Shown: piece after piece, positions 689 through 59,070 of the stretch
Layout: each line of letters opens with the position of its first letter
Numbering within the stretch: the first letter of the stretch is position 1
IMG/VR virus record: IMGVR_UViG_3300030328_000942
Location: 1-60,898 of that record
Length of the DNA: 60,898 nt
Source of the DNA: a virus
Lineage: Duplodnaviria; Caudoviricetes
Strand: one strand, 5' to 3'
Translations under genes and position numbers: made by a program
The notes under the pieces: generated by a model
What the model was told of the DNA's origin: nothing
Databases searched by the model: none
Seen by the model: the letters and a program-made list of their open reading frames with translations, nothing else

Positions 689-704
689 GTGTCTTCAAAG
701 ACAC
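689..704 (+). repeat. 16-bp palindrome copy 1 (GTGTCTTCAAAGACAC), intergenic, stem extended by GAGCG/TGCTC
   Basis: Read directly. Confidence 0.95.
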
Positions 705-725
705 TGCTCATAAAATTAAATTAAA

Positions 726-1124
726 ATGAAAGTAGAAGTAATTAGTACAGAGGGATTGGACAAAAAAACTATCGAGAAGATAGAGAGTCCAATGACATTT
801 AATCAATGGTGGTTTGAAAACGAAACCACTTTTGTAGAGATACAAAATTCTAAAGGAGAAATCATTAGGGTGTTTCCCGAAAGAATTATCCCATCTCTTA
901 AAGAAGTATCAAGCGAAGACTTGAGACAAGAACTAAAGCTGAGAGGTTACCAAACAGATAACCTATGGCAAGTGGATGATGTAATGCAGAACTATGATTG
1001 TGAAAGTGAAGAGGCACAAGAAGTATTGATTAAAGCATTAGACAATGAAGCCACGATGGAACAAGTTTATCTTGCGATAGACATTATAGCAGACGAAGTG
1101 TTTAACTTAAAAAAGAAATCATAA
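726..1124 (+). CDS. Hypothetical protein
   Basis: ORF track; AT-rich leader; stop overlaps next start. Confidence 0.75.
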   Translation: MKVEVISTEGLDKKTIEKIESPMTFNQWWFENETTFVEIQNSKGEIIRVFPERIIPSLKEVSSEDLRQELKLRGYQTDNLWQVDDVMQNYDCESEEAQEVLIKALDNEATMEQVYLAIDIIADEVFNLKKKS

Positions 1125-1438
1125 TGGCAATGTATATAACTAAAGACAATTTTGTTTGGTTGGATGTAACCGACAGAATGAAATACGCACAAGGAAATGA
1201 GCGTGATGAGATATGGGTAGGCAACGACTTGTATGTAATTCACGAGGATGATAGCGAATCCCTGCTTGAGTCACACGATGAGATAGATGAGGCACTGAAG
1301 TTAGGACTAAAGATTGGTATCGAAGTGGGATTCCTACCAAAAAAGAAACCAACATCATTGCTCAATTGGGAGGAAGTAGATAAAAAAATAATCAATGGAC
1401 ATTGGTGGGTAAAATATGGCTCCCAAAAATTTGGATAG
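1124..1438 (+). CDS. Hypothetical protein
   Basis: ORF track; TAATG coupling. Confidence 0.75.
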   Translation: MAMYITKDNFVWLDVTDRMKYAQGNERDEIWVGNDLYVIHEDDSESLLESHDEIDEALKLGLKIGIEVGFLPKKKPTSLLNWEEVDKKIINGHWWVKYGSQKFG

Positions 1439-1461
1439 TATAAATAAATGTACTATCTTTG
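1430..1461 (+). promoter_or_regulatory. Bacteroidota sigma-A-type promoter (-33 TTTG, 20-nt spacer, -7 TATCTTTG)
   Basis: TTTG 1430-1433 and TATCTTTG 1454-1461 match the established TTTG/TAnnTTTG consensus. Confidence 0.8.
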
Positions 1462-1496
1462 AACAGAAATCAAACATTAATTAAATATAAAAGACA

Positions 1497-1760
1497 ATGG
1501 CAAAATTAATAAAATCAAACGGAGAAGTTATCGAGAACTATAAAGCTATAGGACTTAAAGCAAAACAAAAAGCAGTAGGCGGATACATTGAAGCAGTGTA
1601 TACCGACAAGTATGTAATCTTTTGTAATGAAGAAGGATTGCTTTACCAACTCCCAATGAACTTAGAAGTGTCTGCGTTATGCGGGAAAGTAATAGTAGGA
1701 GATTGCGTAGTGATGACACAGAAAGAATCTATGGAGGAAGAAAGGGGGATGGACTCGTGA
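1497..1760 (+). CDS. DUF3846-like protein
   Basis: QKAVGGYIEAV...CNEEGLL...LPMN...IVGD motif pattern. Confidence 0.7.
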   Translation: MAKLIKSNGEVIENYKAIGLKAKQKAVGGYIEAVYTDKYVIFCNEEGLLYQLPMNLEVSALCGKVIVGDCVVMTQKESMEEERGMDS

Positions 1761-1894
1761 ACATAAAAGCGTGGAGTATAGAAATCATATGGGAGGACGG
1801 AACAATTGAAAGATTGGATAGCGTCCCTCATTATGTGTCAAGAGAAGTAAACAATCATCTTGATATAATAGAAGAAGTTAAAAATTTAAATTAA
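1757..1894 (+). CDS. Small hypothetical protein (GTG start overlapping the previous stop)
   Basis: 3' part of track ORF 1679-1894; GTGA overlap. Confidence 0.55.
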   Translation: MNIKAWSIEIIWEDGTIERLDSVPHYVSREVNNHLDIIEEVKNLN

Positions 1895-1899
1895 ATAAA

Positions 1900-2238
1900 A
1901 TGAAAGCAATATATTTAAAAGAAGCAACGGCAGAAAAATTAAGACCAAATTCTGATTCGAATTTTATCAGACGAATGCAACAACTTGCAGACAAAGAAAA
2001 AGAATTTACATTGAGTGTCTTCAAAGACACGGGTAGGTTAATGAATCGACTTGACTTTGTAAAGAACTTTAGCTTTGATTCCTTAAACGATAACACAGAT
2101 ATGGTGATGACTTATATCGATGGGTTATACATTGAGAAGTTAAAGGATGGTACTTGGTACACACAAGGAGTGCAGGACACAGATATAAATGTGATAGAAG
2201 AAATTCTTTTCAACTCCATAGGGGGTTATGATGAATAG
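1900..2238 (+). CDS. Hypothetical protein
   Basis: ORF track. Confidence 0.75.
   Translation: MKAIYLKEATAEKLRPNSDSNFIRRMQQLADKEKEFTLSVFKDTGRLMNRLDFVKNFSFDSLNDNTDMVMTYIDGLYIEKLKDGTWYTQGVQDTDINVIEEILFNSIGGYDE
2015..2030 (+). repeat. 16-bp palindrome copy 2 (TTCAAA centre), inside CDS (encodes SVFKDT)
   Basis: Read directly. Confidence 0.95.
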
Positions 2239-2323
2239 TTTCGAGCAAACAATGATAGCAATAATCCTCGTTCAATTTATTGGATGGGGATTAATTTATT
2301 TATGGACTAAAACAAATAAGTAA
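2231..2323 (+). CDS. 30-aa single-TM peptide
   Basis: MNSFEQTMIAIILVQFIGWGLIYLWTKTNK*; overlaps both neighbours. Confidence 0.5.
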   Translation: MNSFEQTMIAIILVQFIGWGLIYLWTKTNK

Positions 2324-2613
2324 TGAGTAAAGAAAAGACAGAAGAACTAATAAAAGAAGAGGCGAGAAAAATAGTAATGCTCCTCCTTGAAAAGAACAAA
2401 GCGTATGGCGACACCGCAAACAATCCTCCGAAAATATTCAGCAAGTTAGAGGCAGTGGAAGGTTTGTGTGCAAGGATAGATGACAAGCTATCAAGAATAA
2501 AGATGCGTGGAATAACTGACGCAACTGAAGATAGCGTCAGCGACTTAATCGGATACTTAATTTTATTGAAAGTACAACTCAAAAAGAATAGAAAAAATTT
2601 GGACAAGAAATAA
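2323..2613 (+). CDS. DUF1599 / nucleotide-modification-associated domain 1-like protein
   Basis: KNKAYGD...RIDDKLSRI...EDSVSDLIGYLILL motif. Confidence 0.7.
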   Translation: MSKEKTEELIKEEARKIVMLLLEKNKAYGDTANNPPKIFSKLEAVEGLCARIDDKLSRIKMRGITDATEDSVSDLIGYLILLKVQLKKNRKNLDKK

Positions 2614-2629
2614 ACATTGTTTATATTTA
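2598..2629 (+). promoter_or_regulatory. Probable Bacteroidota-type promoter (TTTG-20 nt-TATATTTA)
   Basis: One mismatch to the -7 consensus, canonical spacing. Confidence 0.5.
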
Positions 2630-2656
2630 CCTAATCAAAAATCAAATTAAATTATT

Positions 2657-2857
2657 ATGTCAAAATCAAAAAGAATGTTCACCGAAATGCGTGAACAAAG
2701 CCAAGACTCACACATCGATGCAGAGTATCGATACGACCAATGGATGAGTCAGTTAAATCAAAAACAAAATCACAAGTCTAACTCAGCAGTAGAAATTCTC
2801 GATGAAGTATTTAAATCATACGGGGAAATCTTCGGCTCTAAATCTAATGAAGAATGA
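2657..2857 (+). CDS. Hypothetical protein
   Basis: ORF track. Confidence 0.7.
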   Translation: MSKSKRMFTEMREQSQDSHIDAEYRYDQWMSQLNQKQNHKSNSAVEILDEVFKSYGEIFGSKSNEE

Positions 2858-3147
2858 AACAAGTAGCTTTCGATGAGTACCTAAAAGTAGTGTGCGAAAT
2901 GTTCGGTATTACACAAGAAGATTTGATGACCAAATCTAAGCGAAGAGATATTGTAGATGCACGACATCTTCTATATTATCTGTGCTACCACAGACCAATG
3001 CAAATAAGATACATCCAAGAGTATATGGGGAAGTATGGTTATAAGGTTGGGCATTCTACAATTATACACGGTATCGATACGGTATCCGATAAAGTAGAGG
3101 TAGATGTGGACTACCAAAAGATAGTAACTCAAATGAATATTATCTAA
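2854..3147 (+). CDS. Stand-alone DnaA C-terminal (domain IV)-like HTH protein
   Basis: KSKRRDIVDARHLLYYLC...HSTIIHG resembles DnaA domain IV (R..IV.ARQ.AMYL...DHTTV.HA). Confidence 0.75.
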   Translation: MKQVAFDEYLKVVCEMFGITQEDLMTKSKRRDIVDARHLLYYLCYHRPMQIRYIQEYMGKYGYKVGHSTIIHGIDTVSDKVEVDVDYQKIVTQMNII

Positions 3148-3578
3148 TGACTTATACTATGCAAGACATAATGAATCAAGCAATGGAAGACGAGTTTAGT
3201 GCAAACTTAAATGGGAAAACCTACACTGCAAGGTTGCTTTATGGATGTAAGATAAGTCAAGACGCAGAAACAAAAGAGATTCAAATCCTCAACACCTCAT
3301 TGGGTGGAGAGTGGTATTCCAAAGTCGACAACAATCAAATAAATATTTTTTTAGAAAAAGGTTGGAGAATTGGAGTGTATGAATTATCTTTGTCTAACTA
3401 TCGTTTAAAACTTGACAAGATTGAATTGTCGGTAAAGAAAGAAATGAATGGTAGGCGAAATCCTAAACAGATTCAGTCATTAAAATCTGCGAGGGAAAAT
3501 ATACTAAGGAAGTATAGTAAAATTAAATATAAATTAAATCAAGAATCAAATGGCAAAATTAAAAACGGTAAACATTAA
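3147..3578 (+). CDS. Hypothetical protein
   Basis: ORF track; coupled to neighbours. Confidence 0.75.
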   Translation: MTYTMQDIMNQAMEDEFSANLNGKTYTARLLYGCKISQDAETKEIQILNTSLGGEWYSKVDNNQINIFLEKGWRIGVYELSLSNYRLKLDKIELSVKKEMNGRRNPKQIQSLKSARENILRKYSKIKYKLNQESNGKIKNGKH

Positions 3579-4077
3579 AGGTAAAGAATATGTTGAAGTA
3601 AATGAAAGACTAAAGTATTTCAGAAAAACATATTCCAATTATTCTCTAACATCAGAAGTGATAGAGAAGACAGACAAGACAATCCTAATCCTCGCATCTA
3701 TTATAAATGAAGATGGTAGAGTCATAGCTAATGGTATGGCAGAGGAAGAGAAAGGGAGTACCTTCATTAATAAAACATCATATGTAGAGAACTGCGAAAC
3801 ATCTGCTTGGGGTAGAGCGTTAGCTAACTTTGGTATCGGACTTGATACCTCAGTCGCATCAGCAGAGGAAGTGCAGAATGCTATTAAGAACCAAGACAAA
3901 GTGTCTTCAAAGACACCGACTAATATAGTGTTAGATATTGGTGATGATAATTGGGAAAAGGTTTTAAGCTATGTGGTTGCTAATAAAGAAAAAGGATTAG
4001 GGGCTATCGTTAAAACTTTACAGACCAAATATCAAATAGCAAATAAAGTTAAAACTGAAATCAAAAAACATCTATAA
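3550..4077 (+). CDS. Putative single-strand annealing protein (Sak/Rad52-like)
   Basis: IKGKEYVEVNERL...ENCETSAWGRALANFGIG motif; adjacent to exonuclease and SSB. Confidence 0.6.
   Translation: MAKLKTVNIKGKEYVEVNERLKYFRKTYSNYSLTSEVIEKTDKTILILASIINEDGRVIANGMAEEEKGSTFINKTSYVENCETSAWGRALANFGIGLDTSVASAEEVQNAIKNQDKVSSKTPTNIVLDIGDDNWEKVLSYVVANKEKGLGAIVKTLQTKYQIANKVKTEIKKHL
3901..3916 (+). repeat. 16-bp palindrome copy 3 (TTCAAA), inside CDS (VSSKT)
   Basis: Read directly. Confidence 0.95.
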
Positions 4078-4078
4078 T

Positions 4079-4834
4079 ATGACAACACAAAAAATTATCG
4101 AGACACTAAAGGATGATAATGAATACTATAATGGATTGGGTAGAAAGTATCTATCCAATTCAGATATAGGAACTCTCCTCAAAAATCCACGAGACTTTGG
4201 TAGAAAATTAGAAGACTCAAAAGAATTTGCAATGGGAAGATATTTCCATCAACTTTTTCTTGAGCCGTCTAAAGCTAAGGAGTGGGAATTTATTGATGTA
4301 TCATCTCGTAATACTAAGAAGTATAAAGAGTATGTCGCAGAACTACAAGAGAGTAGTAATAGAGAAAGAAACTTTGCTTTACTCCAAAAAGAAAAGGAGG
4401 ATGTAGAAAGATGGGTTGATGCAATGAAAACTAACATTGACTTTTTCGATTATATCAATGACTCTTCTAACAAGTACGAGGTACCTAACATTAAAGAGAT
4501 ATGTGGTGAAACTTGGAAAGGGAAGGCAGATATTGTAGGCAAAGATTTTATCTACGATTTGAAAACAACAAGTAATATTTTTGATTTTAAATGGAACTCT
4601 CGTAAGTATAATTACGATAGTCAAGCGTATATCTATCAAGAATTATTTGGTAAACCTATGGTCTTCTTAGTTATTGATAAGACTAACTTAATGATGGGAT
4701 TCTTTTCAGTAAGTGAGGAATCATTAGACAGAGGTAAACAGAAAGTAGAAAGAGCAATAGAGGTGTATAGAAAATTCTATGGAGAGAATCCATCAGAAGA
4801 TATAAACCAATATTATTTATATGAAGAAGTTTAA
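4079..4834 (+). CDS. PD-(D/E)XK exonuclease, RecE/DUF3799-like
   Basis: LSNSDI...GRYFH...KGKADI...DLKTT...YDSQAYIY motifs. Confidence 0.8.
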   Translation: MTTQKIIETLKDDNEYYNGLGRKYLSNSDIGTLLKNPRDFGRKLEDSKEFAMGRYFHQLFLEPSKAKEWEFIDVSSRNTKKYKEYVAELQESSNRERNFALLQKEKEDVERWVDAMKTNIDFFDYINDSSNKYEVPNIKEICGETWKGKADIVGKDFIYDLKTTSNIFDFKWNSRKYNYDSQAYIYQELFGKPMVFLVIDKTNLMMGFFSVSEESLDRGKQKVERAIEVYRKFYGENPSEDINQYYLYEEV

Positions 4835-4985
4835 AAAATTTATAGTGTCTTTAAAGACACGACTATTTAAAAGAAACCGAATCTCAATAGTGGAAGTTCC
4901 AAACACTTGTGAGAGTCGTGCCGAAAAAAATAAAGTAATAAAGGCAACATTAAAATTCTTGGAACAACACATTATAATAAATTAA
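4821..4985 (+). CDS. 54-aa hypothetical protein (below ORF-track cut-off)
   Basis: MKKFKKFIVSLKTRLF...HIIIN* fills the gap between exonuclease and SSB. Confidence 0.5.
   Translation: MKKFKKFIVSLKTRLFKRNRISIVEVPNTCESRAEKNKVIKATLKFLEQHIIIN
4845..4860. repeat. 16-bp palindrome copy 4 (perfect, TTTAAA centre)
   Basis: Read directly. Confidence 0.95.
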
Positions 4986-4987
4986 TT

Positions 4988-5266
4988 ATGGCAAATGAAA
5001 ACAACGATGAGAAAATATTTGCGGATGGTTTCTCATTTAAGCGTCAAGAAAACTCTCCCGACTTTGTAGTAGGAAGAGTATCAGTTAAGTGTGATGAAGC
5101 AATAGCTTTTATGAAAAAGCACACAAAGAATGGTTGGTTAAACCTAAACATCAAGTACGCTAAAAGCGGTAAACCCTATATGGAACTTGATACTTGGGAG
5201 CCAACTAATAAAACTCAGGCGGTTAAAGAGCCCGTTGCACAAGCATCGGATGACTTACCGTTTTAG
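4988..5266 (+). CDS. Putative single-stranded DNA-binding protein
   Basis: Beta-rich core with acidic DDLPF C-terminus; recombination module context. Confidence 0.65.
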   Translation: MANENNDEKIFADGFSFKRQENSPDFVVGRVSVKCDEAIAFMKKHTKNGWLNLNIKYAKSGKPYMELDTWEPTNKTQAVKEPVAQASDDLPF

Positions 5267-5292
5267 TTGAGTGTTAATCATTTTTTAATTGT

Positions 5293-5323
5293 GAGGGGTG
5301 TCTTCAAAGACACCTCTCTTTTT
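5293..5323 (+). terminator. Intrinsic terminator whose stem is palindrome copy 5 (5298-5313)
   Basis: GAGGG-GTGTCTTCAAAGACAC-CTCTC-TTTTT downstream of the SSB gene. Confidence 0.75.
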
Positions 5324-5339
5324 GACCAATGAGTGACAA

Positions 5340-5480
5340 GATTAGAAAGCTTTTAGTTATATTATTTATTATATCTCTTTTATTTTTTTTTATAGTATGA
5401 TAGAAAAAAGTTAACAAAGTAAGCAACTCATTGATAATCAGCAACAAACCAAACACAAACTCGACACTAAGTCAACACTA
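5340..5480 (+). other. Origin-like element A: AT-rich tract, IHF-consensus box (5424-5436), 11-bp iterons (5458-5479)
   Basis: CAACTCATTGATA fits YAANNNNTTGATW; AACTCGACACT-AAGTCAACACT tandem; directly upstream of primase-helicase. Confidence 0.55.
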
Positions 5481-5491
5481 AAATTAAATTT

Positions 5492-7906
5492 ATGACATCA
5501 AAGATTACAATATTCAGAAACATTAAGGAGACAGATGCTCCTTTTCACAGAGAGGTAGAACACATTATAGAACGAATAAAGAATGGGGCAAGTAAAGATT
5601 TAGTAAAGCGTATCCGTTTAGAACAACGCAAGGCAGAGCGTAATGAACTAAAGAAACAACTACCCGCTATTTGTTTTAGTGGATACTTCACTAAAAGAAA
5701 CGATAATTCAATTCAGGAACATTCAGGTCTTATTTGTTTAGACTTCGATGGGTACGAGAAGAATAAAGAATTATTACAAGACAAAGAAAACATAACCAAA
5801 TCACCCTATACTTATTCAGTATTTATTTCTCCAAGCGGTAAAGGTTTAAAGGTATTAGTTAAGATACCTCAAGATGTAGACAACCACGTTAACTACTTTA
5901 ATAGTTTAGAAAAACATTTTAATAACGACAAGTTTGATATAGCTTGTAAAAATCTTTCTCGTGTTTGTTACGAATCATACGACCCGTTGATATACGTTAA
6001 TGAGAACTCTTCTATATGGGATAAGATAGAAGAAAAAGAATACCAAGAGAAACATCAATACAGAGATACTCCTACGATACCAATCACAGATGAGAATAGA
6101 ATTGTAGATATTCTAATTAAGTGGTGGACTAAAAAGTATCCAATGAATGAAGGCAGTCGAAATAATAACTGCTATGTTCTTGCCGCAGCCTTTAATGATT
6201 TTGGTATAAACAAATCGTTAGCGGGTTATGTAATGTCAAACTACCAAACCTCAGACTTTAATGAGGCAGAGATAAATCGGACTATAGATTCAGCATATGC
6301 AAACACACAAAACTTTGGAACTAAATACTATGAGGATGAAGAGCGTGTTCAGAATCTAAAAATAAAACTGAAGCGAGGTGCTTCAAAAAAAGAACTCCGT
6401 TCTCAACTCGAAGAGTCTCAAGTAGAGGACGAAGTAATAGAGGCAGTGCTTACTCGTATAGATGAAGAAGCACAAGAGACTCAGTTTTGGACTAAGAATG
6501 AAAAAGGTGTAATCAAAATTGTACACATTCTTTTTAAACAATTCTTAGAAGACAATGGTTTCTATAAGTATTGTCCCGAAGGAAGTAAGAATTATGTATT
6601 TGTTAAGGTAACCAACAACTTAATAGACCATACAGATGAGAAAGAAATAAAAGACTTTATTCTGAATCACCTCATCGAGATAGATGACTTAAGTATTTAC
6701 AATTACTTTGCAGATAAAACAAGATTCTTTGAGGAGAGATTTTTAACTCTATTAAATACAATAGATATTTATTTTATAGAAGACAATAAAGACACCTCCT
6801 ATTTATACTTTAGAAACTGTGCGGTTAAGATTACCAATAACGAAGTGGTGATGATTGACTACATAGACTTAGGCGGGTACGTATGGAAAGACCACGTTAT
6901 TAATAGAAGCTTTTCATTATGTGATTCAAACACAGATTATAAAAAATTTATATCTAACATTTGTAAAGGAGAAGAAGATAGGATTAAGTCTATGGAATCT
7001 ACAATTGGATTTATGATGCACGGACATAAGAATCTTTCTTACTGCCCCGCAGTTATATTAAACGATGAGGTTATCTCTGATAATCCTGAAGGCGGTACGG
7101 GAAAAGGAATCTTTATGAACGCATTAGCCCAAATGAAAAAGGTGGTTACGATAGATGGAAAGTCTTTCACTTTTGAAAGGTCGTTTGCTTATCAACTTGT
7201 TAGTGCTGACACACAGATACTTGTGTTCGATGATGTAAAAAAATACTTTGACTTCGAAAGATTATTCTCAGTTGTAACCGAAGGATTAACTCTTGAAAAG
7301 AAAAACAAAGATGCGATTAAGATACCATTTGAAAAGTCTCCGAAGATAGCTATCACTACGAACTACGCTATAAAAGGAAGCGGTAATTCTTTTGCTCGTA
7401 GAAAATGGGAATTAGAATTACATCAGCATTATACTAAAAACTTTACACCATTAGATGAATTTACTAAACTCTTCTTTGGAGATTGGAATGATGATGAGTG
7501 GTGTGCGTTTGATAACTATATGATTGAATGTTTACAAGGATACCTCAACACAGGGTTAGTCGAAAGTAAGTTTGTAAATTTAAAGATAAGACAACTGAGT
7601 GCAGAAACTTCCCACGACTTCATCGAATGGTGTGGATTAATAAACGGTAGCCAAGCTAACGACTTACTTGTCATTGATTATAAGATAAGATTACACGAGG
7701 CTTACTTAGATTTCATAGAGCAGTATCCTGACTATGCACCAAAGGCAAAGCTAACTATTAGTAGAATTAGATTTAATAAATGGATGTCTGCTTTTGCAAG
7801 ATTCAAGACAGGTGTAAACGCTGAAGAGGGAAGAGACAACACGGGAAGATGGATGCGATTAAAAAGAATAGATGAGGTTAATACACAAACAAACTTGAAT
7901 GTCTGA
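5492..7906 (+). CDS. Primase-helicase (BT4734/VirE-N-like N-terminus, PriCT-like region, C-terminal P-loop helicase)
   Basis: SGLICLDFD...FISPSGKGLK primase-polymerase motifs; EGSRNN PriCT; GGTGKG Walker A, LVFDD Walker B, ITTNY motif C. Confidence 0.85.
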   Translation: MTSKITIFRNIKETDAPFHREVEHIIERIKNGASKDLVKRIRLEQRKAERNELKKQLPAICFSGYFTKRNDNSIQEHSGLICLDFDGYEKNKELLQDKENITKSPYTYSVFISPSGKGLKVLVKIPQDVDNHVNYFNSLEKHFNNDKFDIACKNLSRVCYESYDPLIYVNENSSIWDKIEEKEYQEKHQYRDTPTIPITDENRIVDILIKWWTKKYPMNEGSRNNNCYVLAAAFNDFGINKSLAGYVMSNYQTSDFNEAEINRTIDSAYANTQNFGTKYYEDEERVQNLKIKLKRGASKKELRSQLEESQVEDEVIEAVLTRIDEEAQETQFWTKNEKGVIKIVHILFKQFLEDNGFYKYCPEGSKNYVFVKVTNNLIDHTDEKEIKDFILNHLIEIDDLSIYNYFADKTRFFEERFLTLLNTIDIYFIEDNKDTSYLYFRNCAVKITNNEVVMIDYIDLGGYVWKDHVINRSFSLCDSNTDYKKFISNICKGEEDRIKSMESTIGFMMHGHKNLSYCPAVILNDEVISDNPEGGTGKGIFMNALAQMKKVVTIDGKSFTFERSFAYQLVSADTQILVFDDVKKYFDFERLFSVVTEGLTLEKKNKDAIKIPFEKSPKIAITTNYAIKGSGNSFARRKWELELHQHYTKNFTPLDEFTKLFFGDWNDDEWCAFDNYMIECLQGYLNTGLVESKFVNLKIRQLSAETSHDFIEWCGLINGSQANDLLVIDYKIRLHEAYLDFIEQYPDYAPKAKLTISRIRFNKWMSAFARFKTGVNAEEGRDNTGRWMRLKRIDEVNTQTNLNV

Positions 7907-50951: not shown

Positions 50952-50952
50952 A

Positions 50953-52567: not shown

Positions 52568-52795
52568 TAGATTTAATTTTATTCTCTTCAGGAAATGATT
52601 TTTCTAAAAACTTTATTGTTGCGTTATTTAATTTTCTCTTTCTCATTTCTATTTATGTACTCACCGTCTTTATATACTACGTATTTATTTTTTCTAAGAA
52701 GGTTAATAGCTTTTTTTATCTGTCTTTCATTTTCACGAAAGGCTTCAAAAATCTGATTATGTATTGGCATATACTTGTATTAGTTAAACTTACTT

Positions 52796-54400
52796 TTATT
52801 TGGTGTCATAACTACGTGCCATTGTTACAATTGCATTGGTAGATAAAATAGTAACCGCTACCGATACTGCATTCTGTAAAGCTTGTCTTGTAACCTTAAC
52901 AGGGTCAATCACCCCAAGAGTCATTAGATAGCCATACTTTTCTTTTTTTACATCATATCCATATAGAGCTCCTTTACAATCATCATAGATTACATCAGCA
53001 TCTAATCCTGCGTTCTCTAAGATTTGATAAAGCGGTGCTTTAAGGGATTCAGCTAAAACTGCGTAAGCAGTTTTTTTTGCGTAATCTTTTTCAGAAGATT
53101 CTTTTATAGAATAACTTTTATGAAAGTTGTATAATGATAATCCACCTCCCGGTAGTATACCTTCTTCAAGTGCAGAGCGTACTGCACATACCGCATCATC
53201 TACACGGTCATATAATTCTTTCTGCTCAAGGTCAGTGTTACCTCCCACATATACCACTCCTATCCCACCGGATAGCGAAGCAATACGTTGGTTAATAAAC
53301 TCACGGTTTGTTTTATCTTTTTCATTTTTGTGAGCCTCCTGAAGTTGAGCTATTCTTTCAGTTACTTCTTCTGTCGTCTCTTCATCATCCTTGACGATGA
53401 CCGTTGAGTCCCGGCTAACTATCACCTTAGCACAGTGACCCAAATCGTTGAAATTAATCAAACTCAAGTCATCGCCTGTCTTTTCACTAAAATACTTAGC
53501 ACCTACACTTATCGCAATATCTTGCATAAGCTCGTGTTGCCTGTATCCAAAGTCAGGAGGGTTTATCGTACAAACCTTTAATCCATTCTTAATTACATTA
53601 GCCGCTAAAGTATTTACTACATTAGTTGAGCAATGACCAATCAATAAAAGTTTTTTACCTTCATTGATAATTGGTTTAAGAACATTTTCAATTTGTAATA
53701 TGTTATTTATCTCAGTGTCGCATACTAATACATAAGTGTCTTCAAAGACACACTCGTCTCTCTTTTGGTCATTGATAAATAAGTTAGATGCATATCCTCT
53801 TTTTACCTTAATCCCTTTTGTGGTTTCATAATAGGTTGAGGAGGTTTTACTTTTCTCTACTGTTACTACACCATCTTTACCTACACTCTCATACACATCA
53901 GCTATGATATCACCCACTTGCTTATCATTGTTCGCTGAGATAATAGCTACGTCACGTAATCTTTTTGGGTCAAGTGTTTTACCTTTTACCTTTAGCGACT
54001 TCGATATCTGTTTGGTTTCTTCTACGATGTGTCTTAATACTTCGGTTCGATTGTCGTTATCAATTAATTCGGTTCCTGCATTTACTAATGCCTCTGCTAA
54101 TACAATAGCAGTTGTGGTTCCATCACCGGCTGAGGATGCAGTTCTATCGGCTGCCTCTTTCATCATCCTAACCGCAAGGTTCTCTACCGGGTCTAATAAT
54201 GAAATAGACTTCGCTACAGTCACACCGTCTTTTGTTACAGTGATTCCGTGTAAGTGTTCGGGTGATTCTATTAATACAGTATTACCTCTTGGACCTAATG
54301 TTGACTTAACTGCATTAGCTATTTTATTTATACCGCTTATAAGTTTGGTTCTACCTTCATCAGAAAAATGAAGTTCTTTGGGAGTGAATCCTTGTTGCAT
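52796..54400 (-). CDS. groEL: Chaperonin GroEL-like
   Basis: STLGPRG, TKDGVTVAK, AGDGTTTA, EGILPGGG, GVIDPVKVTR. Confidence 0.97.
   Translation of the reverse strand: MQQGFTPKELHFSDEGRTKLISGINKIANAVKSTLGPRGNTVLIESPEHLHGITVTKDGVTVAKSISLLDPVENLAVRMMKEAADRTASSAGDGTTTAIVLAEALVNAGTELIDNDNRTEVLRHIVEETKQISKSLKVKGKTLDPKRLRDVAIISANNDKQVGDIIADVYESVGKDGVVTVEKSKTSSTYYETTKGIKVKRGYASNLFINDQKRDECVFEDTYVLVCDTEINNILQIENVLKPIINEGKKLLLIGHCSTNVVNTLAANVIKNGLKVCTINPPDFGYRQHELMQDIAISVGAKYFSEKTGDDLSLINFNDLGHCAKVIVSRDSTVIVKDDEETTEEVTERIAQLQEAHKNEKDKTNREFINQRIASLSGGIGVVYVGGNTDLEQKELYDRVDDAVCAVRSALEEGILPGGGLSLYNFHKSYSIKESSEKDYAKKTAYAVLAESLKAPLYQILENAGLDADVIYDDCKGALYGYDVKKEKYGYLMTLGVIDPVKVTRQALQNAVSVAVTILSTNAIVTMARSYDTK
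53736..53751 (+). repeat. 16-bp palindrome copy 12, inside groEL (CVFEDT)
   Basis: Read directly; the only asymmetric copy oriented against local transcription. Confidence 0.95.
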
Positions 54401-54426
54401 AGTTTTATTTGATTTGAATTATTATG

Positions 54427-54434
54427 CAAAGATA
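54427..54434 (-). promoter_or_regulatory. -7 box TATCTTTG upstream of groEL
   Basis: Recurrent motif. Confidence 0.6.
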
Positions 54435-54479
54435 TAAAAAATAATAATGGTAACCTATGGTGCTTAGTTTTAATGTTCC

Positions 54480-54632
54480 TATACTACTACTACTACTTTA
54501 TATGTAATAATATTATTTCCCCTATGATAGCTTTAAAGTTGTCAAACTTAACACTTTTATAGTTAACTAATTGATTTACAATAACTTAACTAATTTAAAC
54601 TTAACACTAAGTCAACACTAAGTCAACACTAT
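54480..54632 (+). other. Origin-like element B: AT-rich tract, IHF-consensus box (54564-54576), 11-bp iterons (54545-54555, 54598-54630)
   Basis: TAACTAATTGATT; AACTTAACACT-AAGTCAACACT-AAGTCAACACT; same box-to-iteron spacing as element A. Confidence 0.55.
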
Positions 54633-54650
54633 AATAAAAAACAAGACACA

Positions 54651-54681
54651 AAAAAAGAGAGTCGGGGAGACTCTCTCTTTC
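54651..54681 (-). terminator. Intrinsic terminator
   Basis: Minus strand AGAGAGTC-TCCCC-GACTCTCT-TTTTT. Confidence 0.7.
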
Positions 54682-54724
54682 AATCAAACATCAAACACTA
54701 TAATTTACGACACACTATAGTTTC

Positions 54725-54931
54725 TTAAATATCTCTTTTAAATAAGTCAATGTTAGCATTAGCTAATTCATTTCCTTCTGCAATCATTTGCACCTTCTCA
54801 AATCTATCCTTTGCCTTTTTCATCATAGCAAGTCTTTGGATTCCCATTTCAGGTGAAGGAGCGTCATTGATTAACCTGCCCCCTTTAACTTCATAACCCA
54901 TCATTGATGGTGGTACACTAAACTTTTTCAT
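54725..54931 (-). CDS. Hypothetical protein, first gene of leftward arm
   Basis: ORF track; own -7 box and terminator. Confidence 0.7.
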   Translation of the reverse strand: MKKFSVPPSMMGYEVKGGRLINDAPSPEMGIQRLAMMKKAKDRFEKVQMIAEGNELANANIDLFKRDI

Positions 54932-54950
54932 ATCTGTAGTTTTCTTTATA

Positions 54951-54958
54951 CAAAGATA
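54951..54958 (-). promoter_or_regulatory. Late promoter -7 box TATCTTTG
   Basis: Recurrent motif. Confidence 0.55.
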
Positions 54959-55121
54959 ATAAAATTTTATTAGATATGTGGAGTCTTTGGGTTCCCCTTG
55001 AAAAATTAAAAAGCCCCCCCCTACCGAAAGTCAAAAAAAAAACTGATGGGGGGTAGTGTTTTCGGTGGTGAGGTTCCAAATTTTTTCGCTTTTTTCCTGT
55101 TACCTGTTGCCCTCCTGTAGT

Positions 55122-55157
55122 CCTCCGCTCCTCCGCTCCGCTCCTCCGCTCTGCTCT
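55122..55157 (+). repeat. (CCT)CCGCT pyrimidine-rich micro-repeat in the divergent non-coding region
   Basis: cctccgctcctccgctccgctcctccgctctgctct. Confidence 0.7.
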
Positions 55158-55228
55158 CGTTCTACCTCTGCTCTTGCTATGCATTCCCTCTGTTGATGAG
55201 GTACATCCATAGATAGAAAGTAAATAGA

Positions 55229-55244
55229 GTGTCTTTAACGACAC
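55229..55244. repeat. 16-bp palindrome copy 13 (variant GTGTCTTTAACGACAC)
   Basis: One mismatch to consensus. Confidence 0.8.
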
Positions 55245-55406
55245 TAAATGAGTAATCTACTGATAGACATACAGAGATTCCTCTTAACCTCTGCTTGACA
55301 TTTATTTGCCCATTACAAACCATAGTGAACAGAGTGTTTGTAATCTATTGAAACACAAAGAGAACAAAAGAATTAGACTAAGGATGAAAGAAAATTGAAA
55401 TTTATA

Positions 55407-55437
55407 GTTGATAATCCAAAATAATGTTGTATTATTG
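55407..55437 (+). promoter_or_regulatory. Probable first early promoter (GTTG-19 nt-TATTATTG)
   Basis: Near-consensus, upstream of the first rightward gene. Confidence 0.45.
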
Positions 55438-55498
55438 AACTATGGATGAACGAGGAATAAACCTTTAGTAAACATAAACACTTAAAAATCAAACAATT

Positions 55499-56146
55499 AT
55501 GAGAAATTTAATGCAAATCGAGGCAGACTTTTTAGCATCTGCACAAGTTCGTAGCCAAGTTAACTTTGCTACAATCGAGAATCTAATCACTGAGGTAGCT
55601 GATGCGAAGAAATCGAAGTTCGACAAATCACTGAAGTTAGCGAAGTTAGTACACGAATCTGTAGTATGGTTTAACGAAGATAGAACTAAGACTCAGTTAG
55701 AGGAGGAAGGAATCGAATGGAGCAATGTAGAAGTATTTTTTAACAGAGTATTTGGATGGCAAAAGTCGTTTGGCTACAAGATGGCTAAGGCAGGTAAATT
55801 ACAATTTACTGAGCCATCTGTGGTTACGAAGTTCAAGAGAAAATGTACTACTGCAGAGAACAATGGCGAGGATGTAAGAAGAAGTATTGAAGCTTTATTG
55901 AAGTTCGCTAAAAATGAGGAGAATGGTACAGAGGGAGAGAATGAGGTTAGCAGAGGGAAAGCATTGGCAACATTCAGTATCGCTAAAGATGGATTGAATG
56001 GTGACAAAGGAGTTTCTGCAAGACTTACGAGAGATGGTCAAGTATCTATTAGTGGTGAATTTGAAAATGAGGATGTTTCAAGAAGAGTAGCGGGTTTATT
56101 CGCTGAGTTGAAATTGGAGTTAGAGAGATACAATCTCAATCAGTAA
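55499..56146 (+). CDS. Hypothetical early protein
   Basis: ORF track; first gene of rightward arm. Confidence 0.8.
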   Translation: MRNLMQIEADFLASAQVRSQVNFATIENLITEVADAKKSKFDKSLKLAKLVHESVVWFNEDRTKTQLEEEGIEWSNVEVFFNRVFGWQKSFGYKMAKAGKLQFTEPSVVTKFKRKCTTAENNGEDVRRSIEALLKFAKNEENGTEGENEVSRGKALATFSIAKDGLNGDKGVSARLTRDGQVSISGEFENEDVSRRVAGLFAELKLELERYNLNQ

Positions 56147-56160
56147 TCAAACAAGGGGTA

Positions 56161-56176
56161 GTGTCTTCAAAGACAC
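56161..56176 (+). repeat. 16-bp palindrome copy 14; extended hairpin 56154-56182 abuts hammerhead 1
   Basis: AGGGGTA-palindrome-TATCCT. Confidence 0.95.
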
Positions 56177-56181
56177 TATCC

Positions 56182-56232
56182 TCTGTCCACAGATGAGTGT
56201 CTGTGCTGATGAGTTCAAAAGAACGAAACAGA
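56182..56232 (+). ncRNA. Hammerhead ribozyme 1 (type III), predicted cleavage GUC^ after 56187
   Basis: UCUG-UC | CACAGA-UGAGUG-UCUGUG | CUGAUGA | GUUC-AAAA-GAAC | GAAA | CAGA: full core and three stems. Confidence 0.92.
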
Positions 56233-56258
56233 AAACCAACAAATAATTAAATTAAATT

Positions 56259-57266
56259 ATGAGAAATTTAAGTCAAAATGGAGTTACTTTCACTACTCAC
56301 GATGAGCCATCGAGAGCGAGAGTTTCTTCTTATGGGAGCAAACCGCTACCATACAAAATTAACAAAGCTGAGTCTGTTGATATCAATGGGCTACCGAGCA
56401 GTGCAAGAAAAAACTTGTACACTGCTGATGGCGGAACAGAGTCATTGTTCACTATCGGTATGGAGTTCGAAAAAGTTCGCTTTCATAGAGGAGCAGTGCA
56501 AGAGTATGCATTGTTCTGCGGATTTGAACACGATGGTAGTTGTGGAGCTGAAGCAGTTACTCACATCTTACCATTGGTAGATAAGTCAATGTGGAGAACG
56601 AAAGTTTTCAATATGTTTGCTGAAGCGAAGAAAATCATTGAGGATGAGTATTCTCCATCTAATGTGAAGTGCGGTGGTCACATTACATTGGGAGTTAAAA
56701 ATGTAAGTGGTAGAGAGTTATCTGATAGACTGAAGAAGTTCAGTGGATTAGTGATGGCTATCTACAGACACAGAGTCTGTAACTACTACTGCAGAGGTAA
56801 CTTTAGAATGGACACATCTGATGAGTATGGTAGTAAGTATACTATTGCTAACTACAAGACTCTTGGTGATGATGGAGTAGTTGAGTTTAGAGTTCCATCG
56901 AGATTCACATCAGTGAAGCAGACAATCCGAAGATATGAGTTCTTTTATCAGATGGTTGACTTTGCGATGAACAAACAAAATTCATCTCTACATCATTTCT
57001 GTAATGCGGTTAGACCAATCCTAATGTCTATGTATGATAACGACACTGAGAAAGTTAACAAGACCATCGAGTTAGCAAAGGAGTTTCAAAAGGTTATCAA
57101 TGGTGGTAAGATTGATGAGAAGACTTGCGGATGGTTTGAGGGATGGTGGAGTTCTAATACTCAGTTAAACTATTTCTTCGGTGGAAGAAGAAGTGACTAC
57201 AAAAGGAATTTCAGTCCATCTGAATACACAGATGTAAGGAAGTTCAAAGAGGAGCAATACTTTTAA
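56259..57266 (+). CDS. Putative amidoligase (COOH-NH2 ligase, glutamine-synthetase-like fold)
   Basis: IGMEFE, HDGSC..EAVT, CGGHITLG, VEFR motifs. Confidence 0.7.
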   Translation: MRNLSQNGVTFTTHDEPSRARVSSYGSKPLPYKINKAESVDINGLPSSARKNLYTADGGTESLFTIGMEFEKVRFHRGAVQEYALFCGFEHDGSCGAEAVTHILPLVDKSMWRTKVFNMFAEAKKIIEDEYSPSNVKCGGHITLGVKNVSGRELSDRLKKFSGLVMAIYRHRVCNYYCRGNFRMDTSDEYGSKYTIANYKTLGDDGVVEFRVPSRFTSVKQTIRRYEFFYQMVDFAMNKQNSSLHHFCNAVRPILMSMYDNDTEKVNKTIELAKEFQKVINGGKIDEKTCGWFEGWWSSNTQLNYFFGGRRSDYKRNFSPSEYTDVRKFKEEQYF

Positions 57267-57273
57267 CCTCAAC

Positions 57274-57301
57274 ACATCCTAAGCAAGATGTAAAACTGCT
57301 T
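57274..57301 (+). ncRNA. H-type pseudoknot immediately 5' of hammerhead 2
   Basis: ACAUC/GAUGU stem; loop AAGCA pairs with downstream UGCUU. Confidence 0.6.
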
Positions 57302-57352
57302 TCTGTATGGTAGTGAGTGCTACCACTGATGATGCCAAAAGGTTGAAACAGA
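57302..57352 (+). ncRNA. Hammerhead ribozyme 2 (type III), predicted cleavage GUA^ after 57307
   Basis: UCUG-UA | UGGUAG-UGAGUG-CUACCA | CUGAUGA | UGCC-AAAA-GGUU | GAAA | CAGA. Confidence 0.85.
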
Positions 57353-57376
57353 TAAATAAATTTAAATTAAATAAAA

Positions 57377-57595
57377 ATGAAAACATTTAACACATTTCAA
57401 AACGCAACGCTTAACCTAATCACATTAATGGTCTATTCAATGGCAGTTAGAGTTCTAATTGACATATGGGTAAACAATGTAAATGATTTTAGGTGGATAG
57501 AACTAACCTATGCAAGTGCATCGAGCATCTTTGTAGCGATACTTGGTTGGTTTCTGCTATTGATAAACATCTCAGTATGGAAAGAAAATAAGTAA
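57377..57595 (+). CDS. Small two-TM membrane protein
   Basis: Two hydrophobic segments; flanked by hammerheads 2 and 3. Confidence 0.7.
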   Translation: MKTFNTFQNATLNLITLMVYSMAVRVLIDIWVNNVNDFRWIELTYASASSIFVAILGWFLLLINISVWKENK

Positions 57596-57659
57596 GGCAT
57601 ACTGATGAGTTCTCAATGAACGAAAGGGTGGTGTCTTCAAAGACACTACTCTCTATGTC
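57596..57659 (+). ncRNA. Hammerhead ribozyme 3 (type I) whose stem III is palindrome copy 15 (57631-57646); cleavage CUC^ after 57653
   Basis: GGCAUA | CUGAUGA | GUUC-UCAAU-GAAC | GAAA | GGGUG-GUGUCUUCAAAGACAC-UACUC | UC | UAUGUC. Confidence 0.88.
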
Positions 57660-57686
57660 AAACATTAAAATAAGAAACGATTAAAT

Positions 57687-58052
57687 ATGAAAACTTTAAC
57701 ACAATTACAAGAAGATTTTAAAGCATTAAACGATAGCTATAAAGCCAATCCATTACCTGCAGGAAAAGAATACAATGCATTTGTTAAGAAATGGAAGAGA
57801 CTTGAAGCTAAAATTAGAAACTACAATAACTCTACTAACATTATGAAAAGAGATGGACTTAAAGTTACTAAGCAATTCGCTGATTATAAAGTTGAATTTA
57901 AAGGAGTTGTTGCTCTAGTTTTTTTAGATGGATGTGTGACAGACTATTGGGCAGTTAATGTAATAGAAGGAAATGTAGAGTTTGAAATTGAAACTTTTGA
58001 AACTAAAGCCGAAGCAATTTGGTACATATATTCAGAATTAAGAAACGATTAA
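57687..58052 (+). CDS. Hypothetical early protein
   Basis: ORF track. Confidence 0.75.
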   Translation: MKTLTQLQEDFKALNDSYKANPLPAGKEYNAFVKKWKRLEAKIRNYNNSTNIMKRDGLKVTKQFADYKVEFKGVVALVFLDGCVTDYWAVNVIEGNVEFEIETFETKAEAIWYIYSELRND

Positions 58053-58075
58053 ATAACAATTAAAATCAAATAACT

Positions 58076-58489
58076 ATGGAAACAATTAAATTTAAAAATG
58101 TAGAGCCAAGTCACGAAGTTGAAAGAGACTTTGACTTGAAGTACGAAAGAATCAAATCTGTTTACAAAGGCAGAATAGATGCTTGTACTTGTGGGTGTGA
58201 GGGAGAGTTCCATTACACTAAACACTTTGCTGAGTACAAATCTAAAGTTGAGGGCAACGACTTACTACTACCATTGGCAGACGATGGTGAAGTTGAGTTT
58301 CTAATCCAAGATGCTTTAGTTTATTCTGACACTGCAAGATTCTTTGTGCAGATGAGTGGTGGATACTGCATCAAAGTTCCTACTCACACTGAGTGGAAAG
58401 ATGCAGAGGGTGGATATGTTCAAATGGGTTACATCATTGACTTACATTGGAAGGACATCAAATTAAATCAAACTAAAATAAATTTATAA
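58076..58489 (+). CDS. Hypothetical protein with CxCGCxG motif
   Basis: SVYKGRIDACTCGCEG. Confidence 0.75.
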   Translation: METIKFKNVEPSHEVERDFDLKYERIKSVYKGRIDACTCGCEGEFHYTKHFAEYKSKVEGNDLLLPLADDGEVEFLIQDALVYSDTARFFVQMSGGYCIKVPTHTEWKDAEGGYVQMGYIIDLHWKDIKLNQTKINL

Positions 58490-58491
58490 TT

Positions 58492-58821
58492 ATGGAAACT
58501 AAATTCGAATGGACTGATGAAGCAGTCAAATCATTTACACAAGTCTACTCTTCAAACTTTAGTAGCAAACTTGTAGACTTTCCTTGTAGCTACAAGGACT
58601 ATAGTGGAAAGAACATCCACGAGAAGATGGAGCAGTTCAAGTTGGACTACAAGCCACAAGAGAAAGTAACATATTGCATCACAATTAAATCTGTGTATGG
58701 TAACTATGGAACAAATGTCAAAGAGTTCAACAACGAAAAGCATTTCGAGAATTGGTATGCAATGATGAGTCGAAAGGGACACAAGATAGTTGGAGTTGAA
58801 TTATTAAAAGGCGAGGAATAA
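58492..58821 (+). CDS. Hypothetical early protein
   Basis: ORF track. Confidence 0.75.
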   Translation: METKFEWTDEAVKSFTQVYSSNFSSKLVDFPCSYKDYSGKNIHEKMEQFKLDYKPQEKVTYCITIKSVYGNYGTNVKEFNNEKHFENWYAMMSRKGHKIVGVELLKGEE

Positions 58822-58982
58822 TGGAAAGACAGAAATACTTTAAGGTCAGATATGCAGGGAAGCTAATTCAAGTTATCCCTGCTCACACGAAATGGGAAGC
58901 AATCGATAGGGTGTACCACGAGAACATCGGAAAGTACAAATGGATTGTCAGAGAAAAATTTACTGCCGTAATCAGTAGATAG
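58821..58982 (+). CDS. 53-aa hypothetical protein
   Basis: MERQKYFKVRY...AHTKWEAIDR...*; TAATG coupling. Confidence 0.6.
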   Translation: MERQKYFKVRYAGKLIQVIPAHTKWEAIDRVYHENIGKYKWIVREKFTAVISR

Positions 58983-58994
58983 ATAAAAAAAAGA

Positions 58995-59026
58995 TTTGGT
59001 AGTGTCGATTTATTGTCGTATCTTTG
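58995..59026 (+). promoter_or_regulatory. Bacteroidota sigma-A-type promoter (TTTG-20 nt-TATCTTTG)
   Basis: Perfect consensus match. Confidence 0.8.
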
Positions 59027-59054
59027 TCTAAATCAAACATTAATCAGTAGTTCT

Positions 59055-59070
59055 GTGTCTTCAAAGACAC
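59055..59070 (+). repeat. 16-bp palindrome copy 16, in the 5' leader of the GATase-GGCT gene
   Basis: Read directly; ~30 nt downstream of the -7 box. Confidence 0.95.

Follow-up and report, generated by a model that had tools for sequence, protein, structure and literature searches.

A repeated 16-base palindrome of a marine podophage clade follows transcription between genes and tips terminator-like and predicted hammerhead ribozyme hairpins

Introduction

Hairpins repeated in one orientation between the cistrons of an operon are known from the RNase III sites of the T7 early mRNA, the repetitive extragenic palindromic (REP) elements of enterobacteria and the stem-loops of T4-type phages. 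Once such a hairpin has been cut, the upstream message carries a protective stem-loop at its 3′ end; the hairpins can also be points of recombination between gene cassettes. In histone mRNAs, a 16-base element with a six-pair conserved stem and a four-base loop, bound by a protein, forms the 3′ end of the message after endonucleolytic cleavage. Here we analyse a 16-base palindrome, GTGTCTT-YR-AAGACAC (Y, pyrimidine; R, purine), that is repeated in the IMG/VR virus record IMGVR_UViG_3300030328_000942, which is rated complete and was taken at its full length of 60,898 bases (the window). Unlike the T7, REP and T4-type hairpins, this repeat lies at some junctions next to predicted ribozymes that would do the cutting in cis; it is also far more uniform and occurs in coding sequence as well. 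With the histone stem-loop it shares the geometry; there is no homology, and the likeness is one of analogy and not of membership.

The presence of hammerhead ribozymes between phage genes dates in the literature to 2011, and their purpose is conjectural. The passages of PMC3088659 consulted here describe hammerheads that flank single genes in phage and prophage operons, and propose that long transcripts are processed into gene-length mRNAs. As in those systems, the window holds several intergenic hammerhead candidates in one co-directional phage operon, where they flank single genes. Unlike in those passages, the candidates are coupled to one conserved 16-base hairpin, being built onto it as stem III or placed directly 3′ of it, and the hairpin occurs also without a ribozyme and inside genes. 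The same passages of PMC3088659 do not mention a coupling of hammerheads to a conserved hairpin. Four 16-mers of the repeat were found in no searchable paper, and a search on hammerheads from Caudoviricetes metagenomes listed nothing on this arrangement.

Intrinsic terminators are a further point of comparison, since the copies at 5298 and 36182 tip G+C-rich stems with U tracts directly past genes. Ordinary terminators, however, have no common sequence, and most copies in the window have no U tract. What appears to be new here is the coupling of phage hammerheads and terminators to a conserved, repeated hairpin; ribozymes, terminators and intercistronic hairpins are themselves known.

Results

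The centre of the palindrome follows transcription between genes but not within genes

The window is the genome of a 60.9-kb podophage of marine Flavobacteriia. Its open reading frames (ORFs) run rightward in 55499–60898 and 1–11822 (early, replication) and leftward in 11838–55244 (late, structural), and the GC skew flips at the same two points as the gene direction. At up to two mismatches the palindrome occurs 17 times, compared to 0.07 expected copies in 100 shuffles. Read on the + strand, the centre is CA in eight copies (689, 2015, 3901, 5298, 53736, 56161, 57631 and 59055), TG in four (11823, 18443, 43373 and, with one arm mismatch, ATGTC..., 25400) and TA in five (4845, 8016, 36182, 60182 and, with one arm mismatch, 55229).

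An earlier sequence-only reading of the window had described the 12 asymmetric copies, all with correct positions and centres, and had claimed that the centre follows the direction of transcription. In the window this is the case: the sense strand reads CA in 11 of the 12 (two-sided binomial p = 0.006) and in 10 of 11 when copy 11823, at the point of gene convergence, is left out (p = 0.012). Copy 53736 in groEL is, as noted there, the only opposite one. Seven copies in rightward-transcribed DNA had been reported to read CA; the count is right, but the label merges coding and non-coding copies. When a copy is called coding if any sense frame is open through ±75 nucleotides (nt), 10 of the 17 copies are non-coding, compared to 22% of sampled positions (p = 0.001).

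To extend the comparison, we combined the window with five complete relatives (G001–G005), giving 84 copies in six genomes, 12–15 in each relative and 12–17 overall, at few shared sites. To set the sense strand, we used ORFs that lie within 2.5 kb and encode no fewer than 100 aa. By this rule 22 of the 84 copies fall in arms scored as ambiguous, the non-coding ones among them being 6 CA : 4 TG. In unambiguous arms the sense strand of non-coding copies reads 25 CA : 3 TG : 5 TA (p = 3e-5), and 21 CA : 3 TG in the five other genomes with the window removed (p = 3e-4). Coding copies give 18 CA : 10 TG in unambiguous arms, 21 : 16 in all arms and 13 : 10 with the window removed (p = 0.68). Over related genomes, the rule was thus borne out for non-coding copies but not for coding ones. 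CA is the sole centre that yields no stop codon in any frame, while TG and TA yield one each, so that a CA:TG ratio of 3:2 is expected in genes; 21 : 16 agrees with it (p = 0.74), and stop-codon avoidance alone suffices for the CA excess of coding copies, which are nearly never TA (1/38). The sense strand is G-rich (G>C skew), so that composition would favour TG and not CA. The orientation rule is thus one of intergenic copies and fails inside genes, and the 5 : 1 ratio among the coding copies of the window is a lucky sample.

The centre itself is a pyrimidine-purine step in all 66 copies found in G001–G005 with an unrestricted GTGTC-N6-GACAC scan, and in 17/17 copies of the window. It had been argued that a symmetric double-stranded (ds) DNA operator should not care about strand, which would favour RNA. 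For the intragenic copies this argument works in the opposite direction: they are indeed neutral in orientation, and the YR centre is strand-symmetric in all 66. At the third loop base of non-coding copies, 30 UYAA stand against 3 UUGA and 1 UCGA. A biased set of 120 loci gave, among the matches listed, 132 CA, 31 TG, 22 TA and 9 CG centres; the top positional classes among these matches are a terminase-gene copy, CA in all 41 loci, the terminator that follows the capsid-like gene (35) and a copy in the helicase gene (10, of which 7 TG).

Non-coding copies tip sense-specific hairpins and two terminators

The non-coding copies of the window and the elements associated with them are as follows.

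689–704, +: palindrome, centre CA; intercistronic, 15 nt past the stop of ORF 288–674 and 22 nt before the ATG at 726.
4845–4860, +: bare copy, centre TA; 11 nt past the stop of the PDDEXK-like gene 4079–4834.
5293–5318, +: intrinsic-terminator-like hairpin of 11 pairs with a tetraloop and TTTTT; its tip is the copy 5298–5313 (CA).
11823–11838, no strand assigned: bare copy that exactly spans the gap between the stops of the convergent genes 11412–11822 (+) and 11838–22373 (−).
36178–36201, −: intrinsic terminator of 10 pairs with a tetraloop and CTTTTTTTT; its tip is the copy 36182–36197 (TA); after the capsid-like gene 36217–37686.
55229–55244, no strand assigned: hybrid copy GTGTCTTTAACGACAC, located where the early and late arms diverge.
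56161–56176, +: palindrome, centre CA, at the tip of a 12-pair hairpin; 15 nt past the stop of ORF 55499–56146 and directly 5′ of a hammerhead.
56177–56238, +: type III hammerhead; predicted cleavage after GUC, 56187/56188.
57297–57358, +: type III hammerhead; predicted cleavage after GUA, 57307/57308.
57596–57659, +: type I hammerhead whose stem III is a 12-pair hairpin tipped by copy 57631–57646 (CA); predicted cleavage after C57653.
58995–59026, +: match to TTTG-N-TAnnTTTG, 28 nt upstream of copy 59055.
59055–59070, +: palindrome, centre CA; its hairpin contains an internal loop, and the ATG of the gamma-glutamyl cyclotransferase (GGCT)/amidotransferase gene 59092–60165 follows 21 nt downstream.
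60182–60197, +: palindrome, centre TA, tipping a hairpin of 13 pairs, four of them G.U; 17 nt past the stop of 59092–60165 and directly 5′ of a hammerhead.
60199–60260, +: type III hammerhead with U.U at the closing pair of stem II; predicted cleavage after GUU, 60209/60210.

Copy 11823 reads TG on the + strand and hence CA for the leftward gene. The two halves of copy 55229 differ, one having the form of the window repeat and the other that of MW202828.1, an uncultured podovirus (terminase identity 73%) that is the closest GenBank record and is treated below. Each of the five other complete genomes likewise has a copy at this place in front of its homologue of 59092–60165. We take TTTG-N-TAnnTTTG to be the Bacteroidetes promoter consensus. 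It matches 7 times in the window compared to 4.1 expected and is not enriched; the arrangement of promoter match and copy recurs in G003 and G005.

Many non-coding copies have stems extended beyond the palindrome by a purine-rich 5′ flank and a C/U-rich 3′ flank. In the six genomes, 20 copies have at least four extra pairs on either strand; the extension is longer on the sense strand in 17, longer on the antisense strand in one (in an ambiguous arm) and equal in two. G.U pairs in these extensions number 24 on the sense strand versus 4 on the antisense strand. In the window, each of the seven extended copies folds more stably on the sense strand than on the antisense strand, by 3 to 9 kcal/mol. 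At copy 689 the stem reaches 11 pairs with one G.U (−18.5 kcal/mol sense versus −14.2 antisense), and at copy 60182 the values are −21.6 and −12.4 kcal/mol. Single-arm transition variants of non-coding copies leave a G.U pair on the sense strand in 5/5 cases, two of them in ambiguous arms, while the same test on coding copies gave 4–6 C.A versus 2–5 G.U and no signal. These patterns indicate that transcription reads the non-coding copies on their sense strand, where they would tip longer, sense-specific hairpins. Folding and model matches predict that these hairpins are terminators at 5293–5318 and 36178–36201, stand directly 5′ of a type III hammerhead at 56161 and 60182, and form stem III of a type I hammerhead at 57631. 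The RNA hairpin proposed in the sequence-only reading thus holds up for the intergenic copies, where sense-only extensions, terminators and fusion to hammerheads all lie on the same strand.

A terminator scan scored 5293–5318 (+) and 36201–36178 (−), both with U tracts and each downstream of a gene; none of the remaining non-coding copies combines a G+C-rich hairpin with a following U tract. Relatives that lack the palindrome have ordinary terminators at the same spot past the capsid-like gene, and it looks as if the 16-mer sits there in the loop of an older hairpin. Among 37 distinct sequences of this orthologous terminator the centre is CA in 19, TA in 9, TG in 6 and absent in 3. On a 37-row FastTree phylogeny of the protein it underwent no fewer than 16 changes, and these frequently separate close relatives; CA outnumbers TG by 19 : 6 (p = 0.015 with the tree ignored). 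Recognition of the loop in the manner of boxB/nut, as had been suggested, does not agree with so many changes at one orthologous site or with the persistence of TG copies. The related proposal that U(C/U)AA is favoured over UUGA stood for the non-coding copies of the five other genomes, but the preference is absent from genes and the loop is not fixed. The loop data fit a weak preference at the RNA level together with inherited oriented cassettes, and not a boxB-type contact.

Covariation supports hammerhead ribozymes joined to the hairpin

Ribozymes were absent from the sequence-only reading; CUGAUGA...GAAA was seen beside three copies when their flanks were read. All four candidates in the window carry the hammerhead core CUGAUGA and GAAA with a cleavage triplet GUC, GUA, GUU or CUC, in agreement with the core consensus taken from the Rfam alignment (CUGANGA, GAAA and N-U-H before stem I). 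The Rfam model RF00008 matches 56180–56234 with 42.4 bits (E 6.6e-7) and 60202–60256 with 35.1 bits (E 7.8e-5). For 57596–57659 (type I) and 57297–57358 no Rfam match was obtained up to E 10.

We aligned 14 cassettes of hairpin plus type III hammerhead from the window and five other contigs. In this alignment 93% of the cells are paired, and both partners have changed in 15 of the 26 pairs, a result reached by 0/500 shuffles; slid controls gave 2–7 two-sided pairs and 38–50% paired cells. Two-sided changes affect 6/6 pairs of stem I, 3/4 of stem II and 2/3 of stem III. A model built from the ribozyme part of the cassettes alone matches 15 type III hammerheads in six genomes, all in the early arm and on the sense strand, and none in MW202828.1. 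It scores 83.9 bits on 56177–56238, a sequence of its training set, and 64.6 bits (E 1e-13) on 57297–57358, which lies outside the training set and has only a weak non-canonical hairpin 5′ of the ribozyme. Directly upstream of the 15 ribozymes stands the palindrome hairpin in 10 cases and another hairpin in 5, e.g., GGAGCGG-GAAA-CCGCUCC.

For 57596–57659 the minimum free energy fold is a canonical three-stem type I hammerhead with the palindrome hairpin as stem III. Searching by pattern revealed this design in four further viral contigs. Its stems covary (stem I GGCAUA/UAUGUC or GGUUUA/UAAACC; stem II GUUC/GAAC, GGGC/GCCC or GGGU/ACCC) in five sequences whose pairs were read by eye and not counted, MAFFT having misplaced the 3′ half of one row. 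The ribozymes are thus supported by covariation in relatives, and their cleavage is predicted.

Stem I covaries, while its loop (56194–56199, 60216–60221 and relatives; alignment columns 48–53) is near-constant as UGAGUG or UGUGUG and may form a tertiary contact with loop II (AAAA or GAAA). An ORF of 72 aa at 57377–57595 is flanked by a type III hammerhead (cut 57307/8) and the type I hammerhead (cut 57653/4). The predicted cuts would free an RNA of ~346 nt with a 5′-hydroxyl and a 2′,3′-cyclic phosphate end. RtcB-type ligases act on such ends, which makes circularisation conceivable.

Copies inside genes are conserved without orientation

The copies of the window that lie in open frames are the following.

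2015–2030, +: bare copy, centre CA; within the longest ORF 1900–2238 (VFKDT), 10 nt before the ATG at 2040; coding status uncertain.
3901–3916, +: bare intragenic copy, centre CA; ORF 3550–4077, reads VSSKT.
8016–8031, +: bare intragenic copy, centre TA; ORF 7899–8144, reads VSLKT.
18443–18458, −: bare intragenic copy, sense CA; ORF of 3511 aa, reads VSSKT.
25400–25415, −: intragenic copy, sense CA; the one arm mismatch is a G.U pair on the sense strand; reads VSSKT.
43373–43388, −: intragenic copy, sense CA; large terminase gene, reads CLQRH; synonymous sites conserved in relatives.
53736–53751, −: intragenic copy, sense TG; groEL, reads VFEDT.

Copies 3901, 8016, 18443 and 25400 lie in four unrelated genes and share one frame, Val-Ser-(Ser/Leu)-Lys-Thr.

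The terminase copy was followed through the 80 closest of at least 599 terminase-related loci in IMG/VR, an unbiased sample. Among these, 29 carry the exact 16-mer, 5 are one base off and 4 two; the rest have unrelated residues. TGT CTT CAA AGA CAC, after a codon ending in G, is exact in 29/32 sequences that encode CLQRH, with neighbouring codons varying freely. The variant GTGCCTTCAAAGGCAC has two synonymous changes, one in each arm, and keeps the pairing. Over all variants with two mismatches, MW202828.1 excluded, 4/13 are compensatory versus ~3% by chance; two of these four are both copies of a short contig (L120) with a C-G pair, and a third, an A+T-rich string, could be due to chance. The L120 pair may be a lineage-wide switch like that of MW202828.1. 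The groEL and helicase copies keep the same place and the antisense orientation in several genomes, and for groEL both site and orientation are shared by 3/5 other complete genomes.

A sister phage has switched the palindrome in concert

The repeat-bearing genomes encode proteins of 45–80% identity, yet the repeat agrees among them in 16 of 16 bases. Exact matches to the 16-mer in IMG/VR came from at least 120 stretches, and 118 of the 120 matches listed encode relatives of window proteins. The repeat marks the clade of this phage. Among cultured relatives, which are farther away by terminase, Flavobacterium Elemovirus NC_055855.1 (~46% identity, tblastn) has no repeated palindrome; Cellulophaga phages are at ~38%.

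MW202828.1 contains no copy of the window form. It has instead 14 copies of the perfectly symmetric GTGTCGTTAACGACAC, all in the early arm (43745–55154), mostly 4 nt past a stop codon and 16–20 nt before the next start, and these show no extended stems. Together with the invariant stem and the conserved synonymous sites, this switch points to a sequence-specific factor that may read dsDNA. The intragenic copies form a separate class, neutral in orientation yet conserved, and with the fixed stem they imply a factor that reads 7+7 bases; it may be a dimeric DNA-binding protein.

PHROGs and Pfam searches of 47 window proteins, together with two Atlas look-ups, revealed no RNA-binding family. As candidates, the protein scans gave only two proteins with the DnaA C-terminal helix-turn-helix (PF08299; 2854–3147 and 10095–10628, E 7e-13 and 2e-7), VRR-NUC and PDDEXK nucleases and an HNH endonuclease. 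The two DnaA_C proteins, the VRR-NUC nuclease and several unknown proteins are common to all seven palindrome-bearing genomes and absent from Elemovirus. We regard this co-occurrence with the repeat as a lead and not as evidence.

Discussion

The observation that started this analysis is real and is here partly explained. In our view the 16-mer is probably an RNA hairpin that tips functional hairpins between genes, terminators and hammerheads alike, with the intragenic copies standing apart. The palindrome would be the DNA image of a stem-loop with six pairs, GUGUCU/AGACAC, and a four-base loop U-Y-R-A, which the clade would put at the tip of functional RNA hairpins in intergenic gaps. Termination or self-cleavage 1 to 11 nt past the hairpin would leave the upstream mRNA ending in it, shielded from 3′ exonucleases, while after cleavage the downstream mRNA would begin with a 5′-hydroxyl; a long early transcript would thereby be split into separately stable messages. 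Copy 59055 would lie in a 5′ leader instead. The asymmetric centre would be the loop, in which UCAA or UUAA may be weakly preferred over UUGA on RNA, and much of the orientation bias may have been inherited with oriented hairpin, ribozyme and leader cassettes. This RNA role in the gaps would account for a centre that tracks transcription between genes and not within them. By analogy to the histone stem-loop, one can go further and see in the hairpin a clade-specific end mark of messages, whose ends ribozymes and terminators would tailor and whose stem would be read by a phage or host protein that controls the stability or translation of all marked messages together. The intragenic copies would then be extra binding or cleavage points that tune the long late transcripts, and the switch in the sister phage would be co-evolution with the stem-reading protein. 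We consider this extension as a whole rather doubtful.

Several findings weigh against the RNA hairpin. As a rule, proteins that bind RNA recognise the loop and tolerate covariation in the stem, while here the loop is labile and the stem fixed, the reverse of that pattern. The 14 stem bases are invariant although ribozymes and terminators function with other hairpins; with 5 of 15 type III hammerheads preceded by such a hairpin, the ribozyme needs no particular sequence there, and an RNA role leaves the stem invariance unexplained. Seven of the 17 window copies, and 37 asymmetric copies in the six genomes, lie in open frames without preference for orientation (21 : 16). Strand and coding calls based on ORFs are crude, at least three hairpins (G001 14102, G002 20677 and G002 59792) having been scored as coding, and homologous non-coding sites across genomes are not independent, which makes the binomial p values given above too small. 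Both RF00008 scores lie below the gathering score of 48.5, at which the window has no match, and hammerhead 60199 has U.U where G-C is usual. For 52000–60898 no RNA data set was listed as containing the sequence, and two metatranscriptome runs from a sample in which the DNA is present have next to none of its sequence words.

In a rival account the sequence is a dsDNA site in the first place, two 7-bp half-sites around a flexible YR step that bind a dimeric protein encoded by the phage, with the RNA hairpin as a by-product. Such a site would have been nested at the tips of existing hairpins in short gaps, or co-opted there. We think of this account as possible but unlikely. It resembles the operators of dimeric helix-turn-helix proteins in its 7-bp inverted half-sites, central YR, orientation-free intragenic copies and concerted switch in a sister lineage. 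The invariant stem agrees with it, as do a strand-symmetric centre in 66/66 and 17/17 copies, the neutral 21 : 16 of coding copies and a terminase copy fixed at synonymous sites (29/32) between variable codons. The symmetric exchange of all 14 copies for GTGTCGTTAACGACAC in MW202828.1 and of both L120 copies to C-G at the same pair fits as well, and so do 12–17 copies per genome at few shared sites, the position of copy 59055 just downstream of a promoter-like match and the two DnaA_C-type proteins that track the repeat across seven genomes and are absent from Elemovirus. Operators, however, do not usually sit at the tips of terminators or ribozymes, and a dsDNA site accounts neither for the 25 : 3 ratio among non-coding copies nor for G.U extensions confined to the sense strand, nor for the integration into ribozymes. 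In the compensatory terminase variant GTGCCTTCAAAGGCAC the hairpin is kept while both half-sites would be weakened. A binding protein was not found among the proteins searched, and the DnaA-type link is one of co-occurrence only. A hairpin acting on single-stranded DNA, as an N4-like virion RNA polymerase promoter, a primase signal or the end of a REP-like mobile element, seems very improbable to us. A conserved stem with a variable loop is typical of hairpin-recognising DNA enzymes. The phage has a virion-type ORF of 3511 aa, a primase-helicase and a VRR-NUC nuclease; a strand-specific process would give strand-specific orientation, and since transcription and GC skew flip together, the directions of replication and transcription are inseparable. 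Against this, coding copies have no strand preference, no transposase was found among the proteins searched, and type III hammerheads need the 3′ flank of the hairpin in the RNA, so that transcription reads through and does not start after the hairpin. For the 3511-aa ORF (11838–22373, −) neither Pfam nor PHROGs gave a match, and it shows no polymerase signature and lacks a D-x-D-x-D motif; with this and the read-through demanded by the hammerheads, the virion polymerase promoter was rejected. For crAss-like phage, the part of 10.1101/2020.03.07.982082 consulted here reports no common motif upstream of early transcripts.

The boxB/nut-like antitermination proposed in the sequence-only reading, in which an N-like protein reads the U(C/U)AA loop and renders polymerase resistant to terminators, strikes us as highly improbable. 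Like lambda boxB/nut, the repeat forms a small RNA hairpin on the sense strand of a phage operon; its non-coding copies favour A at the third loop base (30 UYAA versus 3 UUGA and 1 UCGA). It differs in that the loop flips often at an orthologous site with TG copies persisting, in its 12–17 copies per genome, in copies that lie after genes, at terminators and inside ribozymes instead of one behind each promoter, and in flanks that show no conserved partner box such as boxA; no N-like protein turned up, though none was specifically sought. Finally, that the orientation bias is a matter of chance, strand-specific mutation or codon bias, which had been named as grounds for giving it up, is scarcely credible as a general account. 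This explanation is sufficient, and accepted here, for the coding copies (21 : 16 versus 3:2, p = 0.74), but it is refuted for the non-coding ones, which stand at 21 : 3 in five genomes, contain no codons and have a skew in the opposite sense.

If the RNA hairpin reading is correct, it gives the ribozymes of phage operons a testable model, in which the purpose of cutting is to give every message a protected end in the form of the hairpin. The clade is an abundant one of marine phages, with at least 599 related contigs in IMG/VR. The same 16 bases being fixed at synonymous sites in genes, it also offers a clean case for separating constraint at the RNA level from constraint at the DNA level. 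For annotation, the four predicted ribozymes and two terminators of the window are missed by standard thresholds.

Further genes of the phage

Recognisable genes of the window include a portal, the large terminase, a capsid-like protein, GroEL/GroES, the primase-helicase (5492–7906) and a helicase; a tRNA scan found none. The only conserved rightward gene within the leftward arm, 51910–52344, matches only a PHROG of unknown function, and its homologue in MW202828.1 carries a repressor annotation. Its transcription would proceed into groES/groEL in the antisense direction, and copy 53736, the one of opposite orientation, lies there. An early protein of 335 aa (56259–57266) clusters with phage proteins of which 12% carry Amidoligase_2, and the 357-aa protein of 59092–60165, which begins Met-Cys, has GGCT and glutamine amidotransferase-like matches. 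Both are kept in all seven related genomes and may form a small-molecule or peptide-ligation module. The first ~230 residues of a 1798-aa protein (27428–32824) match the crAss-phage muzzle protein (PF25731, E 4e-10), which suggests a distant link of this marine podophage group to Crassvirales.

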